Shown here one piece after another: positions 37,426-45,777 of a stretch of DNA of 64,000 nucleotides. The stretch is from Eledone cirrhosa. Its lineage: Eukaryota. The stretch spans positions 25,668,001 to 25,732,000 of the forward strand of contig OZ024757.1 in the NCBI GenBank assembly GCA_964016885.1, in the 5' to 3' direction. The translations under genes and the position numbers were made by a program. The first letter of the stretch is position 1, and every line of letters starts with the position of its first letter. The notes below the pieces were generated by a model that saw nothing but the letters and a program-made list of their open reading frames with translations, had not been told where the DNA came from and searched no databases.

Positions 37426-37550
37426 AGTCATAAACAACATAAAATAATTATTTCATTTACCAGTGGTTTCTTGAAGACATATATGTATGTCTGTCTCAAG
37501 AAACCACTGGTAAATGAAATAATTTATCTTATGTTGTTTATTACATAACT
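37421..37550. repeat. Fold-back inverted repeat abutting (TA)n, with a third arm copy at ~37666-37720
   Basis: ttatttcatttaccagtggtttcttga ... tcaagaaaccactggtaaatgaaataa. Confidence 0.75.
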
Positions 37551-37613
37551 ACAAAGCTCTGTACCCTACATAGAGCACTCTCTTTTCCTTTACCTTTCCT
37601 ACGGAAATACTTC

Positions 37614-37653
<40 letters not shown>

Positions 37654-37738
37654 ATATATATATTTAGTTATGTAATAAATAACATAAGATAATTATTTCA
37701 TTTACCAGTGGCTTCTTGAAAGCAAACAAATCTGCTTT

Positions 37739-37965
<227 letters not shown>

Positions 37966-38632: not shown

Positions 38633-38707
<75 letters not shown>

Positions 38708-38716
38708 ACATATATA

Positions 38717-38777
<61 letters not shown>

Positions 38778-38832
38778 CATATATATATTTATATATATAT
38801 ATATATATATATAACATATATATTTATATATA

Positions 38833-39753
38833 TGAATATAGACATAGAATATTCGAAAATATTCTGTATGTTTATAATAAACATTTTGAAGACCTAATCG
38901 CTATAGAATAGAATACGTCACGTATTACAATTAGATTCTCGACAAAAGCAAGGGAAGTAAATCTACGCGTTTCATTCTTATTAGAAATCGTCAGGACTAC
39001 ATATCCAGTGCTTCTATCGAGAATGACACAGCTAGAGACTTATAGAATACTTAGCTGTGTACAGGAACTGGTTTGAAAGAGCGGTTGCCGGTCCGGCAGA
39101 AATTAGAAATTGGAATAAATGCTCTGAAATAGCGATATATATGTGAATATAGACATAGAATATTCGAAAATATTCTGTATGTTTATAATAAACATTTTGA
39201 AGACCTAATCGCTATAGAATAGAATACGTCACGTATTACAATTAGATTCTCGACAAAAGCAAGGGAAGTAAATCTACGCGTTTCATTCTTATTAGAAATC
39301 GTCAGGACTACATATCCAGTGCTTCTATCGAGAATGACACAGCTAGAGACTTATAGAATACTTAGCTGTGTACAGGAACTGGTTTGAAAGAGCGGTTGCC
39401 GGTCCGGCAGAAATTAGAAATTGGAATAAATGCTCTGAAATAGCGATATATATGTGAATATAGACATAGAATATTCGAAAATATTCTGTATGTTTATAAT
39501 AAACATTTTGAAGACCTAATCGCTATAGAATAGAATACGTCACGTATTACAATTAGATTCTCGACAAAAGCAAGGGAAGTAAATCTACGCGTTTCATTCT
39601 TATTAGAAATCGTCAGGACTACATATCCAGTGCTTCTATCGAGAATGACACAGCTAGAGACTTATAGAATACTTAGCTGTGTACAGGAACTGGTTTGAAA
39701 GAGCGGTTGCCGGTCCGGCAGAAATTAGAAATTGGAATAAATGCTCTGAAATA
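38833..39753 (-). repeat. 311-bp HHR-containing tandem repeat, inverted block (~2.96 monomers)
   Basis: gaatatagac at 38834, 39145 and 39456. Reverse complement of the downstream monomer. Confidence 0.95.
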
Positions 39754-42700
39754 TAATTTCTGCCGGACCGGCAACCGCTCTTTCAAACCAGTTCCTGTAC
39801 ACAGCTAAGTATTCTATAAGTCTCTAGCTGTGTCATTCTCGATAGAAGCACTGGATATGTAGTCCTGACGATTTCTAATAAGAATGAAACGCGTAGATTT
39901 ACTTCCCTTGCTTTTGTCGAGAATCTAATTGTAATACGTGACGTATTCTATTCTATAGCGATTAGGTCTTCAAAATGTTTATTATAAACATACAGAATAT
40001 TTTCGAATATTCTATGTCTATATTCACATATATATCGCTATTTCAGAGCATTTATTCCAATTTCTAATTTCTGCCGGACCGGCAACCGCTCTTTCAAACC
40101 AGTTCCTGTACACAGCTAAGTATTCTATAAGTCTCTAGCTGTGTCATTCTCGATAGAAGCACTGGATATGTAGTCCTGACGATTTCTAATAAGAATGAAA
40201 CGCGTAGATTTACTTCCCTTGCTTTTGTCGAGAATCTAATTGTAATACGTGACGTATTCTATTCTATAGCGATTAGGTCTTCAAAATGTTTATTATAAAC
40301 ATACAGAATATTTTCGAATATTCTATGTCTATATTCACATATATATCGCTATTTCAGAGCATTTATTCCAATTTCTAATTTCTGCCGGACCGGCAACCGC
40401 TCTTTCAAACCAGTTCCTGTACACAGCTAAGTATTCTATAAGTCTCTAGCTGTGTCATTCTCGATAGAAGCACTGGATATGTAGTCCTGACGATTTCTAA
40501 TAAGAATGAAACGCGTAGATTTACTTCCCTTGCTTTTGTCGAGAATCTAATTGTAATACGTGACGTATTCTATTCTATAGCGATTAGGTCTTCAAAATGT
40601 TTATTATAAACATACAGAATATTTTCGAATATTCTATGTCTATATTCACATATATATCGCTATTTCAGAGCATTTATTCCAATTTCTAATTTCTGCCGGA
40701 CCGGCAACCGCTCTTTCAAACCAGTTCCTGTACACAGCTAAGTATTCTATAAGTCTCTAGCTGTGTCATTCTCGATAGAAGCACTGGATATGTAGTCCTG
40801 ACGATTTCTAATAAGAATGAAACGCGTAGATTTACTTCCCTTGCTTTTGTCGAGAATCTAATTGTAATACGTGACGTATTCTATTCTATAGCGATTAGGT
40901 CTTCAAAATGTTTATTATAAACATACAGAATATTTTCGAATATTCTATGTCTATATTCACATATATATCGCTATTTCAGAGCATTTATTCCAATTTCTAA
41001 TTTCTGCCGGACCGGCAACCGCTCTTTCAAACCAGTTCCTGTACACAGCTAAGTATTCTATAAGTCTCTAGCTGTGTCATTCTCGATAGAAGCACTGGAT
41101 ATGTAGTCCTGACGATTTCTAATAAGAATGAAACGCGTAGATTTACTTCCCTTGCTTTTGTCGAGAATCTAATTGTAATACGTGACGTATTCTATTCTAT
41201 AGCGATTAGGTCTTCAAAATGTTTATTATAAACATACAGAATATTTTCGAATATTCTATGTCTATATTCACATATATATCGCTATTTCAGAGCATTTATT
41301 CCAATTTCTAATTTCTGCCGGACCGGCAACCGCTCTTTCAAACCAGTTCCTGTACACAGCTAAGTATTCTATAAGTCTCTAGCTGTGTCATTCTCGATAG
41401 AAGCACTGGATATGTAGTCCTGACGATTTCTAATAAGAATGAAACGCGTAGATTTACTTCCCTTGCTTTTGTCGAGAATCTAATTTTAATACGTGACGTA
41501 TTCTATTCTATAGCGATTAGGTCTTCAAAATGTTTATTATAAACATACAGAATATTTTCGAATATTCTATGTCTATATTCACATATATATCGCTATTTCA
41601 GAGCATTTATTCCAATTTCTAATTTCTGCCGGACCGGCAACCGCTCTTTCAAACCAGTTCCTGTACACAGCTAAGTATTCTATAAGTCTCTAGCTGTGTC
41701 ATTCTCGATAGAAGCACTGGATATGTAGTCCTGACGATTTCTAATAAGAATGAAACGCGTAGATTTACTTCCCTTGCTTTTGTCGAGAATCTAATTGTAA
41801 TACGTGACGTATTCTATTCTATAGCGATTAGGTCTTCAAAATGTTTATTATAAACATACAGAATATTTTCGAATATTCTATGTCTATATTCACATATATA
41901 TCGCTATTTCAGAGCATTTATTCCAATTTCTAATTTCTGCCGGACCGGCAACCGCTCTTTCAAACCAGTTCCTGTACACAGCTAAGTATTCTATAAGTCT
42001 CTAGCTGTGTCATTCTCGATAGAAGCACTGGATATGTAGTCCTGACGATTTCTAATAAGAATGAAACGCGTAGATTTACTTCCCTTGCTTTTGTCGAGAA
42101 TCTAATTGTAATACGTGACGTATTCTATTCTATAGCGATTAGGTCTTCAAAATGTTTATTATAAACATACAGAATATTTTCGAATATTCTATGTCTATAT
42201 TCACATATATATCGCTATTTCAGAGCATTTATTCCAATTTCTAATTTCTGCCGGACCGGCAACCGCTCTTTCAAACCAGTTCCTGTACACAGCTAAGTAT
42301 TCTATAAGTCTCTAGCTGTGTCATTCTCGATAGAAGCACTGGATATGTAGTCCTGACGATTTCTAATAAGAATGAAACGCGTAGATTTACTTCCCTTGCT
42401 TTTGTCGAGAATCTAATTGTAATACGTGACGTATTCTATTCTATAGCGATTAGGTCTTCAAAATGTTTATTATAAACATACAGAATATTTTCGAATATTC
42501 TATGTCTATATTCACATATATATCGCTATTTCAGAGCATTTATTCCAATTTCTAATTTCTGCCGGACCGGCAACCGCTCTTTCAAACCAGTTCCTGTACA
42601 CAGCTAAGTATTCTATAAGTCTCTAGCTGTGTCATTCTCGATAGAAGCACTGGATATGTAGTCCTGACGATTTCTAATAAGAATGAAACGCGTAGATTTA

Positions 42701-45351
42701 CTTCCCTTGCTTTTGTCGAGAATCTAATTGTAATACGTGACGTATTCTATTCTATAGCGATTAGGTCTTCAAAATGTTTATTATAAACATACAGAATATT
42801 TTCGAATATTCTATGTCTATATTCACATATATATCGCTATTTCAGAGCATTTATTCCAATTTCTAATTTCTGCCGGACCGGCAACCGCTCTTTCAAACCA
42901 GTTCCTGTACACAGCTAAGTATTCTATAAGTCTCTAGCTGTGTCATTCTCGATAGAAGCACTGGATATGTAGTCCTGACGATTTCTAATAAGAATGAAAC
43001 GCGTAGATTTACTTCCCTTGCTTTTGTCGAGAATCTAATTGTAATACGTGACGTATTCTATTCTATAGCGATTAGGTCTTCAAAATGTTTATTATAAACA
43101 TACAGAATATTTTCGAATATTCTATGTCTATATTCACATATATATCGCTATTTCAGAGCATTTATTCCAATTTCTAATTTCTGCCGGACCGGCAACCGCT
43201 CTTTCAAACCAGTTCCTGTACACAGCTAAGTATTCTATAAGTCTCTAGCTGTGTCATTCTCGATAGAAGCACTGGATATGTAGTCCTGACGATTTCTAAT
43301 AAGAATGAAACGCGTAGATTTACTTCCCTTGCTTTTGTCGAGAATCTAATTGTAATACGTGACGTATTCTATTCTATAGCGATTAGGTCTTCAAAATGTT
43401 TATTATAAACATACAGAATATTTTCGAATATTCTATGTCTATATTCACATATATATCGCTATTTCAGAGCATTTATTCCAATTTCTAATTTCTGCCGGAC
43501 CGGCAACCGCTCTTTCAAACCAGTTCCTGTACACAGCTAAGTATTCTATAAGTCTCTAGCTGTGTCATTCTCGATAGAAGCACTGGATATGTAGTCCTGA
43601 CGATTTCTAATAAGAATGAAACGCGTAGATTTACTTCCCTTGCTTTTGTCGAGAATCTAATTGTAATACGTGACGTATTCTATTCTATAGCGATTAGGTC
43701 TTCAAAATGTTTATTATAAACATACAGAATATTTTCGAATATTCTATGTCTATATTCACATATATATCGCTATTTCAGAGCATTTATTCCAATTTCTAAT
43801 TTCTGCCGGACCGGCAACCGCTCTTTCAAACCAGTTCCTGTACACAGCTAAGTATTCTATAAGTCTCTAGCTGTGTCATTCTCGATAGAAGCACTGGATA
43901 TGTAGTCCTGACGATTTCTAATAAGAATGAAACGCGTAGATTTACTTCCCTTGCTTTTGTCGAGAATCTAATTGTAATACGTGACGTATTCTATTCTATA
44001 GCGATTAGGTCTTCAAAATGTTTATTATAAACATACAGAATATTTTCGAATATTCTATGTCTATATTCACATATATATCGCTATTTCAGAGCATTTATTC
44101 CAATTTCTAATTTCTGCCGGACCGGCAACCGCTCTTTCAAACCAGTTCCTGTACACAGCTAAGTATTCTATAAGTCTCTAGCTGTGTCATTCTCGATAGA
44201 AGCACTGGATATGTAGTCCTGACGATTTCTAATAAGAATGAAACGCGTAGATTTACTTCCCTTGCTTTTGTCGAGAATCTAATTGTAATACGTGACGTAT
44301 TCTATTCTATAGCGATTAGGTCTTCAAAATGTTTATTATAAACATACAGAATATTTTCGAATATTCTATGTCTATATTCACATATATATCGCTATTTCAG
44401 AGCATTTATTCCAATTTCTAATTTCTGCCGGACCGGCAACCGCTCTTTCAAACCAGTTCCTGTACACAGCTAAGTATTCTATAAGTCTCTAGCTGTGTCA
44501 TTCTCGATAGAAGCACTGGATATGTAGTCCTGACGATTTCTAATAAGAATGAAACGCGTAGATTTACTTCCCTTGCTTTTGTCGAGAATCTAATTGTAAT
44601 ACGTGACGTATTCTATTCTATAGCGATTAGGTCTTCAAAATGTTTATTATAAACATACAGAATATTTTCGAATATTCTATGTCTATATTCACATATATAT
44701 CGCTATTTCAGAGCATTTATTCCAATTTCTAATTTCTGCCGGACCGGCAACCGCTCTTTCAAACCAGTTCCTGTACACAGCTAAGTATTCTATAAGTCTC
44801 TAGCTGTGTCATTCTCGATAGAAGCACTGGATATGTAGTCCTGACGATTTCTAATAAGAATGAAACGCGTAGATTTACTTCCCTTGCTTTTGTCGAGAAT
44901 CTAATTGTAATACGTGACGTATTCTATTCTATAGCGATTAGGTCTTCAAAATGTTTATTATAAACATACAGAATATTTTCGAATATTCTATGTCTATATT
45001 CACATATATATCGCTATTTCAGAGCATTTATTCCAATTTCTAATTTCTGCCGGACCGGCAACCGCTCTTTCAAACCAGTTCCTGTACACAGCTAAGTATT
45101 CTATAAGTCTCTAGCTGTGTCATTCTCGATAGAAGCACTGGATATGTAGTCCTGACGATTTCTAATAAGAATGAAACGCGTAGATTTACTTCCCTTGCTT
45201 TTGTCGAGAATCTAATTGTAATACGTGACGTATTCTATTCTATAGCGATTAGGTCTTCAAAATGTTTATTATAAACATACAGAATATTTTCGAATATTCT
45301 ATGTCTATATTCACATATATATCGCTATTTCAGAGCATTTATTCCAATTTC
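39754..45351 (+). mobile_element. Retrozyme-like array: 18 x 311-bp monomers, each with a minimal hammerhead
   Basis: tgccggaccg at 39761, 40072 ... 42871 (period 311). I noticed only one substitution (~41486). Confidence 0.9.
39859..39902 (+). ncRNA. Minimal type-I hammerhead ribozyme of the first forward monomer (repeats every 311 nt), predicted cleavage after 39895
   Basis: gtAGTC-CTGACGA-tTTCT aata AGAAt-GAAA-CGCG-TA-GATTtac. Intact CUGANGA/GAAA core, GUA site and palindromic CGCG loop III. Confidence 0.9.
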
Positions 45352-45393
<42 letters not shown>

Positions 45394-45777
45394 CATATAT
45401 ATATTTATATATATATATATATATATATATAACATATATATATTTATATATATACATATATAAAACAGAGAACGAAGGACAAACACAGACAGAGATATGA
45501 ACTCTCCTCTCTAAATATGTATGTAAAAACTAATAATTTTTCTTCCCCTTTTTATTATTCGTATAAATATGCACATAACTACATTATGCATATCCCGCAG
45601 TTAAAAAAGCATATAATGCTGAAACCGGTACCATTATTAAATGCGGAAATATCCACTTTATAAATAAATGTTTTGATATTATACTGAAAGAATCACCATT
45701 ATCTACTGAAAACATCTTTTTCCTCTCTACTATTTGTTTTTATATATATATCAACTCGTGTTTTACTTTTCTACATT

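Follow-up and report, generated by a model that had tools for sequence, protein, structure and literature searches.

Two-armed arrays of a 311-nt hammerhead repeat in Eledone cirrhosa carry paired outer ends that suggest two-ended priming by a Penelope-like enzyme

A 64,000-nt window of the Eledone cirrhosa genome [GenBank assembly GCA_964016885.1, contig OZ024757.1, positions 25,668,001 to 25,732,000] contains an insert made of two arms of one 311-nt hammerhead repeat, placed back to back with the sense 3′ ends outermost. The question raised by this locus is how a long tandem array with an inverted arm is formed. A first-pass annotation proposed that reverse transcription had placed the array, in one event, within a (TA)n tract already there, the enzyme circling its template many times and then folding back. 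Comparison with further arrays suggests that the insert is a young retrozyme insertion without long terminal repeats (non-LTR), and that it probably arose in a single event in which a Penelope-like reverse transcriptase (RT)/GIY-YIG protein primed from both target ends on the same, likely circular, RNA. The window locus is an ordinary member of its family, and the finding is an end rule that holds across the family.

Unit positions are numbered from window position 39754, where the forward arm (39754..45352, plus strand; 5,599 nt) begins. This arm consists of 18 units of 311 nt (39754-45351), as first annotated, and one further matching base at 45352, and its outer end is at unit position 1. 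Seventeen of the 18 units are identical, the single substitution being at position 178 of unit 6, and the arm is the fifth longest of 174 arms in 87 sampled arrays. The inverted arm (38833..39753, minus strand; 921 nt) includes zero variants, and its 2.96 units agree with the approximately three monomers described earlier. Its sense 5′ end is at unit position 286, and its outer sense 3′ end, at position 273, lies right before the CATATATAT motif (274-282), where the annotation had placed it. The arms meet head to head at 39753..39754 in a blunt junction with no overlap and no inserted bases, and the TA microhomology that had been assumed to join them is not present. The right outer end lies 39 nt beyond the left in the unit, and this 'tail' (45314..45352, plus strand; unit 274-311 and 1) is missing at the left outer end. 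Tail-less and tailed ends are referred to below as A and B, respectively.

The insert is flanked by one compound (TA)n tract, found at 38693..38832 on the left and continued at 45353..45460 on the right. AACATATATATATTT occurs four times in the window (38707, 38776, 45392 and 45431), always within these flanks, which confirms that both carry the same compound microsatellite; a shorter variant is at 38813. The 12 bases TATTTATATATA abut the insert on both sides and form a tentative candidate target-site duplication of low complexity (left copy 38821..38832, right copy 45353..45364, both plus strand). The flank motifs and TATTTATATATA fit a single pre-existing tract, itself low-complexity sequence, that would have been cut with a stagger of approximately 12 nt. 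An empty allele was not found in the assembly, where the left flank is present once at full length.

A type I hammerhead motif was identified by motif scan at 39859..39902 (plus strand) in the first forward unit, and recurs every 311 nt in both arms. It comprises helix I (GTAGTC/GATTTAC), the core CTGACGA (unit 112-118; window 39865-39871), helix II, GAAA (39886-39889) and a palindromic ACGCGT helix III, and in an Rfam scan of the repeat it fell below the gathering thresholds. The core pattern is intact in 760/765 full units of the sampled arrays; common family variants near the ribozyme affect N7 (116), helix or loop II (119, 124, 126 and 127) and helix I (108, 109 and 144-145). The fold of the unit beats 98/100 shuffles (z = -3.1). 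A short palindromic helix III is described as the dimer-active form of the hammerheads of metazoans and of Penelope-like elements (PLEs) [PMC4209133]. The predicted cut follows unit position 142 (window 39895), and neither end of the insert coincides with it. With a 311-nt period and a GC content of ~0.35, the repeat falls within the retrozyme range (150-450 bp, GC below 45-50%), and like retrozymes it is dispersed in many copies (~1,500 ends) with a duplication longer than 4 bp (the candidate 12 bp at the window). It matches the non-LTR retrozymes of PMC7229834 in sequence features, self-cleavage being a prediction. The insert is the 311-nt unit throughout, no dedicated scan of the unit for an open reading frame (ORF), primer-binding site or polypurine tract having been made; as it consists solely of this unit rather than carrying a single RT and GIY-YIG ORF, it is not classed as an autonomous PLE. 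A decayed antisense hammerhead was also considered within the unit and was dropped, as 9% of shuffles scored equally well.

The 3.0-Gb assembly was searched for further copies. A pattern combining the tailed end with TA gave 778 forward and 2,468 reverse matches, the latter inflated by a variable gap, and the exact 273-end pattern gave 712; controls gave 0 for both. About 1,500 tailed ends, and hence about 1,500 insertions, are estimated genome-wide. The sample of 96 loci consists of the window, 15 arrays drawn from among 150 listed of 417 repeat matches and not picked by end, and two sets from contig C1: every one of the 53 sites with a tailed end that were listed for its first 106 Mb, and 27 sites with a tail-less end (two that had no listed partner in the first 106 Mb, and the next 25). 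In 80 of these loci the search pattern dictated a TA flank and one of the two ends, leaving the opposite end free. Both arms, and with them the head-to-head inverted 5′-truncated copy typical of PLEs, are present in 89/96 loci: 87 simple two-arm arrays and two that are two-ended and complex (L046 and L063). The other seven show a single arm; in the one-armed arrays L038, L076, L099, L100 and L105 the 5′ end runs directly into (TA)n, resembling a second arm of zero length. Independent arrays lie in pairs only ~1-4 kb apart at ~43.58-43.59 Mb and ~96.18-96.19 Mb of C1, possibly indicating local clustering of insertions.

All 87 simple arrays have one A end (264-282) and one B end (301-4), with no AA and no BB combination. 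The pairing is found in each selection group (48/48 arrays picked by B, 24/24 picked by A and 15/15 not picked by end). The A end is at position 273 in 58 arrays and at 282 in 17, and the B end at 308 in 52 and at 310 in 15. The offset from A to B has a median of 35 nt and a range of 25-45, and in 87/87 arrays corresponds to the one-sided tail of 30-40 bp seen in PLEs. Comparison of end phases and inversions among arrays, which the first-pass annotation had advised, thus reveals fixed paired ends; what that annotation overlooked is that these two outer ends are those familiar from PLEs, both fixed, one with a tail and one without. Both flanks start with at least 6 alternating TA bases in 73/87 arrays, one flank being forced by the search in 72, and the AT-rich or (TA)n target expected of PLE-mobilised elements is thus the usual one. 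Only 10 of the 87 loci could be scored for target duplication because pure TA tracts are uninformative; six of the ten have a duplication of 12-15 bp, and the other four have matches of 26-57 nt, perhaps representing compound repeats.

The inner ends are spread around the unit. Positions 140-150 hold 5/174 of them, against ~6 expected; a concentration of ends or inner junctions at the hammerhead cut was thus rejected, in agreement with the original view that the ends are unrelated to it. The offset between the two inner ends of an array is flat (8 within 15 nt, 8.7 expected). Arms no more than 5 nt from an integer length number 7/174, against ~6 expected (11/311 x 174); because near-integer arms occur at about chance frequency, the value 18.0 carries no information, integer copy number was rejected as a signal, and the earlier hint that it reflects unequal exchange or assembly answers something that needs no explanation. 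Inner junctions have an overlap of 1-16 nt in 49 of the 87 arrays, none in 13 and inserts in 25. Overlap averages 2.4 nt over the 62 insert-free junctions, compared with 0.75 nt for random joins, and 12/13 inserts of at least 8 nt match the unit of their own array. We take these overlaps and templated inserts to resemble polymerase-theta-type end joining. Of the two complex loci, L063 has ~270 nt of unrelated, GC-richer sequence caught between the arms (L063:4562-4833), and L046 has its inner junction (208|172) twice (L046:6310-6487), as though copying had leapt back over the palindrome.

The arrangement would be explained if a Penelope-like RT/GIY-YIG protein cut both strands of the target, with a stagger of ~12 nt in the TA tract. 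One DNA end would then prime at unit ~273-282 and the other at ~308-4, each by short pairing only, and each RT would run a random distance (~3 and 18 units at the window), displacing what is ahead. The two complementary DNA (cDNA) 3′ ends would be joined by microhomology-type repair and the gaps then filled. The RNA, as proposed from published work on retrozymes, may be released from array transcripts by hammerheads acting as dimers and then closed by ligation into a circle of 310/311 nt. PLE hallmarks include an inverted 5′-truncated copy, a one-ended tail of 30-40 bp and a preference for (TA)n; in the same papers the tail has been ascribed to endonuclease resolution, or the inversion to antisense self-priming [PMC8557442, PMC3846280, PMC2377424].

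Twin priming is favoured over fold-back because the ends are paired A with B, either arm may be the longer and the arm lengths are independent. Under fold-back, which is considered unlikely, the RT would roll from one target end, switch to its own cDNA and copy back, with the new end linked to the opposite side of the target through TA microhomology or following an endonuclease cut; the self-priming [PMC3846280] and endonuclease-resolution [PMC8557442] ideas are its kin. That the tail-less end adjoins the unit's own CATATATAT motif speaks for this route, which is feasible in 49/87 arrays, the window included. However, the A arm exceeds the B arm in 38 arrays, and copy-back from the tailed arm is impossible in these 38/87 because a copy cannot exceed its source. 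Copy-back from the tail-less arm fails in the 42/87 where the B arm is more than one unit longer. As A is more than one unit longer in 26, each one-directional form fails for many arrays, and a mixture of directions needs two different ending rules that nevertheless always yield AB. Short loops are not in excess, and arm lengths are uncorrelated (rho 0.095; p = 0.19 for independence, against a mean of 0.30 and p = 0.015 for simulated copy-back). A weaker point is that, with L033, L093 and all arrays lacking a full unit set aside, 56/66 minority substitutions in the doubly covered range are unshared; mutations that arise later stay private to one arm whichever model holds. The fold-back of the first-pass annotation hence finds no support as a general mechanism, but remains compatible with the window by itself, because there the tailed arm is the longer one.

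The composition of the arrays bears on the template. Of the full units, 675/765 equal the majority unit of their own array. Among the 91 arrays that contain a full unit there are 39 distinct majority units, 27 of which occur in a single array, and the majority unit is found in both arms in 61/63 arrays. Private variants fixed across both arms suggest passage through a bottleneck of one unit that was then copied many times, as a circle would allow, and judging from the unit sequences each array derives from a single template, likely circular in most cases. This homogeneity supports the part of the original proposal that envisaged a single reverse-transcribed insertion into (TA)n from a circular or multimeric template. 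Local amplification of arrays is favoured in bioRxiv 10.64898/2026.07.22.740005, and would here mean that a short two-armed insertion of PLE type grew later by unequal exchange or slippage and was homogenised by gene conversion. Consistent with such growth, 17/100 sub-array variants are in more than one unit (6/29 units of L096, for example), and conversion between inverted arms could yield sharing in register. It is nonetheless very improbable, as 83/100 are singletons, the repeated ones are mostly non-adjacent, divergence inside arrays is only 4.3e-4 per base and the window variant is limited to one unit. In L096 the six units carry two linked changes, and in L062 (units 6 and 13) and L058 minority variants also recur in non-adjacent units; mixed templates or conversion are hinted at in all three.

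The genome has more than 10,000 candidate GIY-YIG loci. Genomic ORFs of 636-938 aa match RT and GIY-YIG, the RT scores being slightly under the Pfam cut-off. One RT and GIY-YIG family shares the geometry of the arrays, namely an inverted pair with a tail-less end 122-126 nt past the hammerhead cut and a tail opposite, and is unrelated in sequence to the retrozyme repeat. Its copies include L159, L038, L104 and two remnants in the window. L159 is a 3.3-kb inverted pair with a tail-less end 124 nt past the cut and a tail at the other end; the retrozyme ends are 131 and 166 nt from their cut. The window remnants (~20661-21107 and ~28400-28850) are short and palindromic, derive from the 3′ end of an autonomous-type PLE and have a hammerhead in each arm, one arm tailed and one tail-less. 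Further families with minimal hammerheads of PLE type are abundant in the genome (flanks of L031-L165; window 16649, 21318 and 24269). Purified anole PLE protein in vitro is reported to nick and extend both strands, to prefer AT-rich DNA, and to use two internal start sites bounding a 30-40 nt tail; a dimer was predicted for it by AlphaFold [PMC11167929].

Several observations weigh against two-ended priming on a circle by a Penelope-like protein. BLAST of the unit against the array flanks and 40 of the >10,000 GIY-YIG loci found only related non-coding elements: none of the 40 loci is a PLE sharing the repeat sequence, and no PLE ORF is attached in the array flanks or in those of an older sister family, so that the partner enzyme is inferred. 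The anole protein showed no difference in start site from one strand to the other [PMC11167929], and obligate A/B pairing is therefore still without a biochemical explanation. No public RNA run was listed with the repeat, and no public run of any kind contained half of the sequence words of the locus. Of the 96 loci, seven show one arm only (one cut short where the retrieved sequence ends and one entering unreadable sequence) and two are complex. Finally, both arms of L113, read inwards from their outer ends, run X-X-Y... with a 35-nt offset, X and Y differing at three linked positions, and in L087 and L103 a single minority variant is in register from both outer ends. These three arrays are at odds with a one-unit circle because such a circle cannot give minority variants in register, and need a mixed-multimer template, copy-back or conversion. 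L103 and L113 fit twin priming and copy-back of the tailed arm equally, in-register variants being expected where the outer part of that arm is copied. In L087 the tail-less arm extends further along the template than the tailed arm, without a tail; neither arm can therefore be an in-register copy of the other, which rules out fold-back in both directions for this array. A fourth array with a shared minority variant, L111, is uninformative. The unit X of L113 equals another array type of the family.

The order of units in L113, and the similar cases of L087 and L103, would also follow if the usual template of two-ended priming were a long linear RNA read from a parent array and left uncut by its hammerheads, with no one-unit circle. 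The anole PLE protein acted in vitro without need of hammerhead cleavage, its main substrate being unprocessed RNA [PMC11167929]. A linear template is nevertheless a doubtful choice for the family. The 27/39 majority units seen in one array only are yet fixed in both arms, which would require repeated one-unit bottlenecks; truncated copies would shrink with each generation, yet arms reach 27-30 units; and circular RNAs are described as demonstrated for other metazoan retrozymes [PMC7229834].

The remaining explanation, that the repeat was collapsed, expanded or mirrored in assembly, draws on near-identical units and palindromes being error-prone, and the copy number of 18 at the window is known from the assembly alone. 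Such an artefact is hardly credible for ~1,500 loci with sequence-defined ends and differing unique flanks, and a mirrored read would not yield arms of unequal length and end point, as found here. The tandem unit and the common variants are also found in two public DNA data sets from different studies, and one public-data contig joins a 308 end to (TA)n.

Older sister families of ~320 nt (L051:1313-1836, L127:2449-2864 and L166-L195) are 77-82% identical to the unit over positions 202-311 and 1-67. The hammerhead region is not shared, their own hammerheads being decayed or of another kind, but both end points agree with those of the 311-nt repeat. Unit 202-311 and 1-67 is therefore likely the region recognised by the enzyme. 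Elsewhere in the window, a short element between TA tracts at 37500-37740 resembles, by eye, a palindrome at L051:1880-2070. Reverse-complement tandem motifs at 819-915 and 1965-2111, ~1.1 kb apart, are possibly the terminal inverted repeats of another element.

Retrozymes, rolling reverse transcription on circles, the partnership with PLEs, and PLE inversions and tails have already been proposed or are known. Proposals on the mover of retrozymes and on rolling on circles were made in PMC7229834 and PMC7761336, and a phylogenetic argument was put forward in bioRxiv 10.64898/2026.07.22.740005. The formation of PLE inverted repeats and tails was named as a next task in PMC8557442, and only its first steps were reconstituted in PMC11167929. 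In a literature search, mostly without subscription journals, neither retrozyme arrays with two arms and paired ends nor a PLE rule of twin priming turned up. Symmetric double priming may be such a rule, a tentative proposal that is given slightly less than an even chance. A dimeric RT/endonuclease would hold one RNA with two start sites 35 nt apart, one for each cut strand; both subunits would copy the same RNA at once, and on a circle each would roll independently, up to ~30 laps. If true, the rule would explain PLE inverted repeats, the one-sided tail and the one-step birth of retrozyme 'satellite' arrays, and one start site per strand is a testable prediction for the existing in vitro PLE system. 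The family offers ~1,500 very young natural products with the PLE tail signature, and arms long enough to separate twin priming from fold-back. It provides insertion-site evidence for PLE machinery mobilising retrozymes and preserves, across the genome, traces of a stage in the movement of such elements that is poorly understood. A further suggestion is that a single step can produce long palindromes and homogeneous tandem arrays of several kilobases.

Among known systems, twin priming is familiar from L1: a cDNA is started from each of the two target ends on a single RNA, and the product has its 5′ part inverted and microhomology where the arms meet. Only a minority of L1 insertions arise in this way; their second priming site is internal and varies, and their arms do not overlap. 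By contrast, 89/96 retrozyme loci are two-armed, both sites are fixed and the arms repeatedly copy the same sequence. Metazoan non-LTR retrozymes [PMC7229834; bioRxiv 10.64898/2026.07.22.740005] are likewise described as tandem repeats of 310/311 nt and ~35% GC with a type I hammerhead in each unit, non-coding as the present unit appears to be, and dispersed as dimers to ~30-mers with a duplication of >4 bp in genomes that also contain PLEs. The available text of these sources describes head-to-tail arrays, and mentions neither an inverted two-arm layout nor targeting of (TA)n nor end phases that are fixed; 'inverted' and 'microsatellite' are words absent from the main text of PMC7229834. Expression and circles were demonstrated there, whereas the present family is known from DNA. 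Endonuclease-containing (EN+) PLEs (Penelope/Poseidon, Neptune and Naiad, with inverted pseudo-LTRs) [PMC8557442, PMC3846280, PMC2377424, PMC11167929] are described with the same inverted 5′-truncated head-to-head copy, one-ended tail (35 nt here), (TA)n or AT-rich targets, a target duplication of approximately 10-13 bp where loci are informative, and a minimal dimer-type hammerhead upstream of the end. They differ in that the retrozyme insert is only the 311-nt unit with no RT/endonuclease ORF, and in that each arm here is many laps of a small unit rather than a truncated single copy. Chlamys/MRC1 of Chlamydomonas [PMC8557442] are similarly non-autonomous PLE dependants with multicopy head-to-tail insertions. 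Their 3′ ends, however, are described as resembling those of autonomous partners, and their clade as being without canonical hammerheads, whereas the hammerhead is conserved here.

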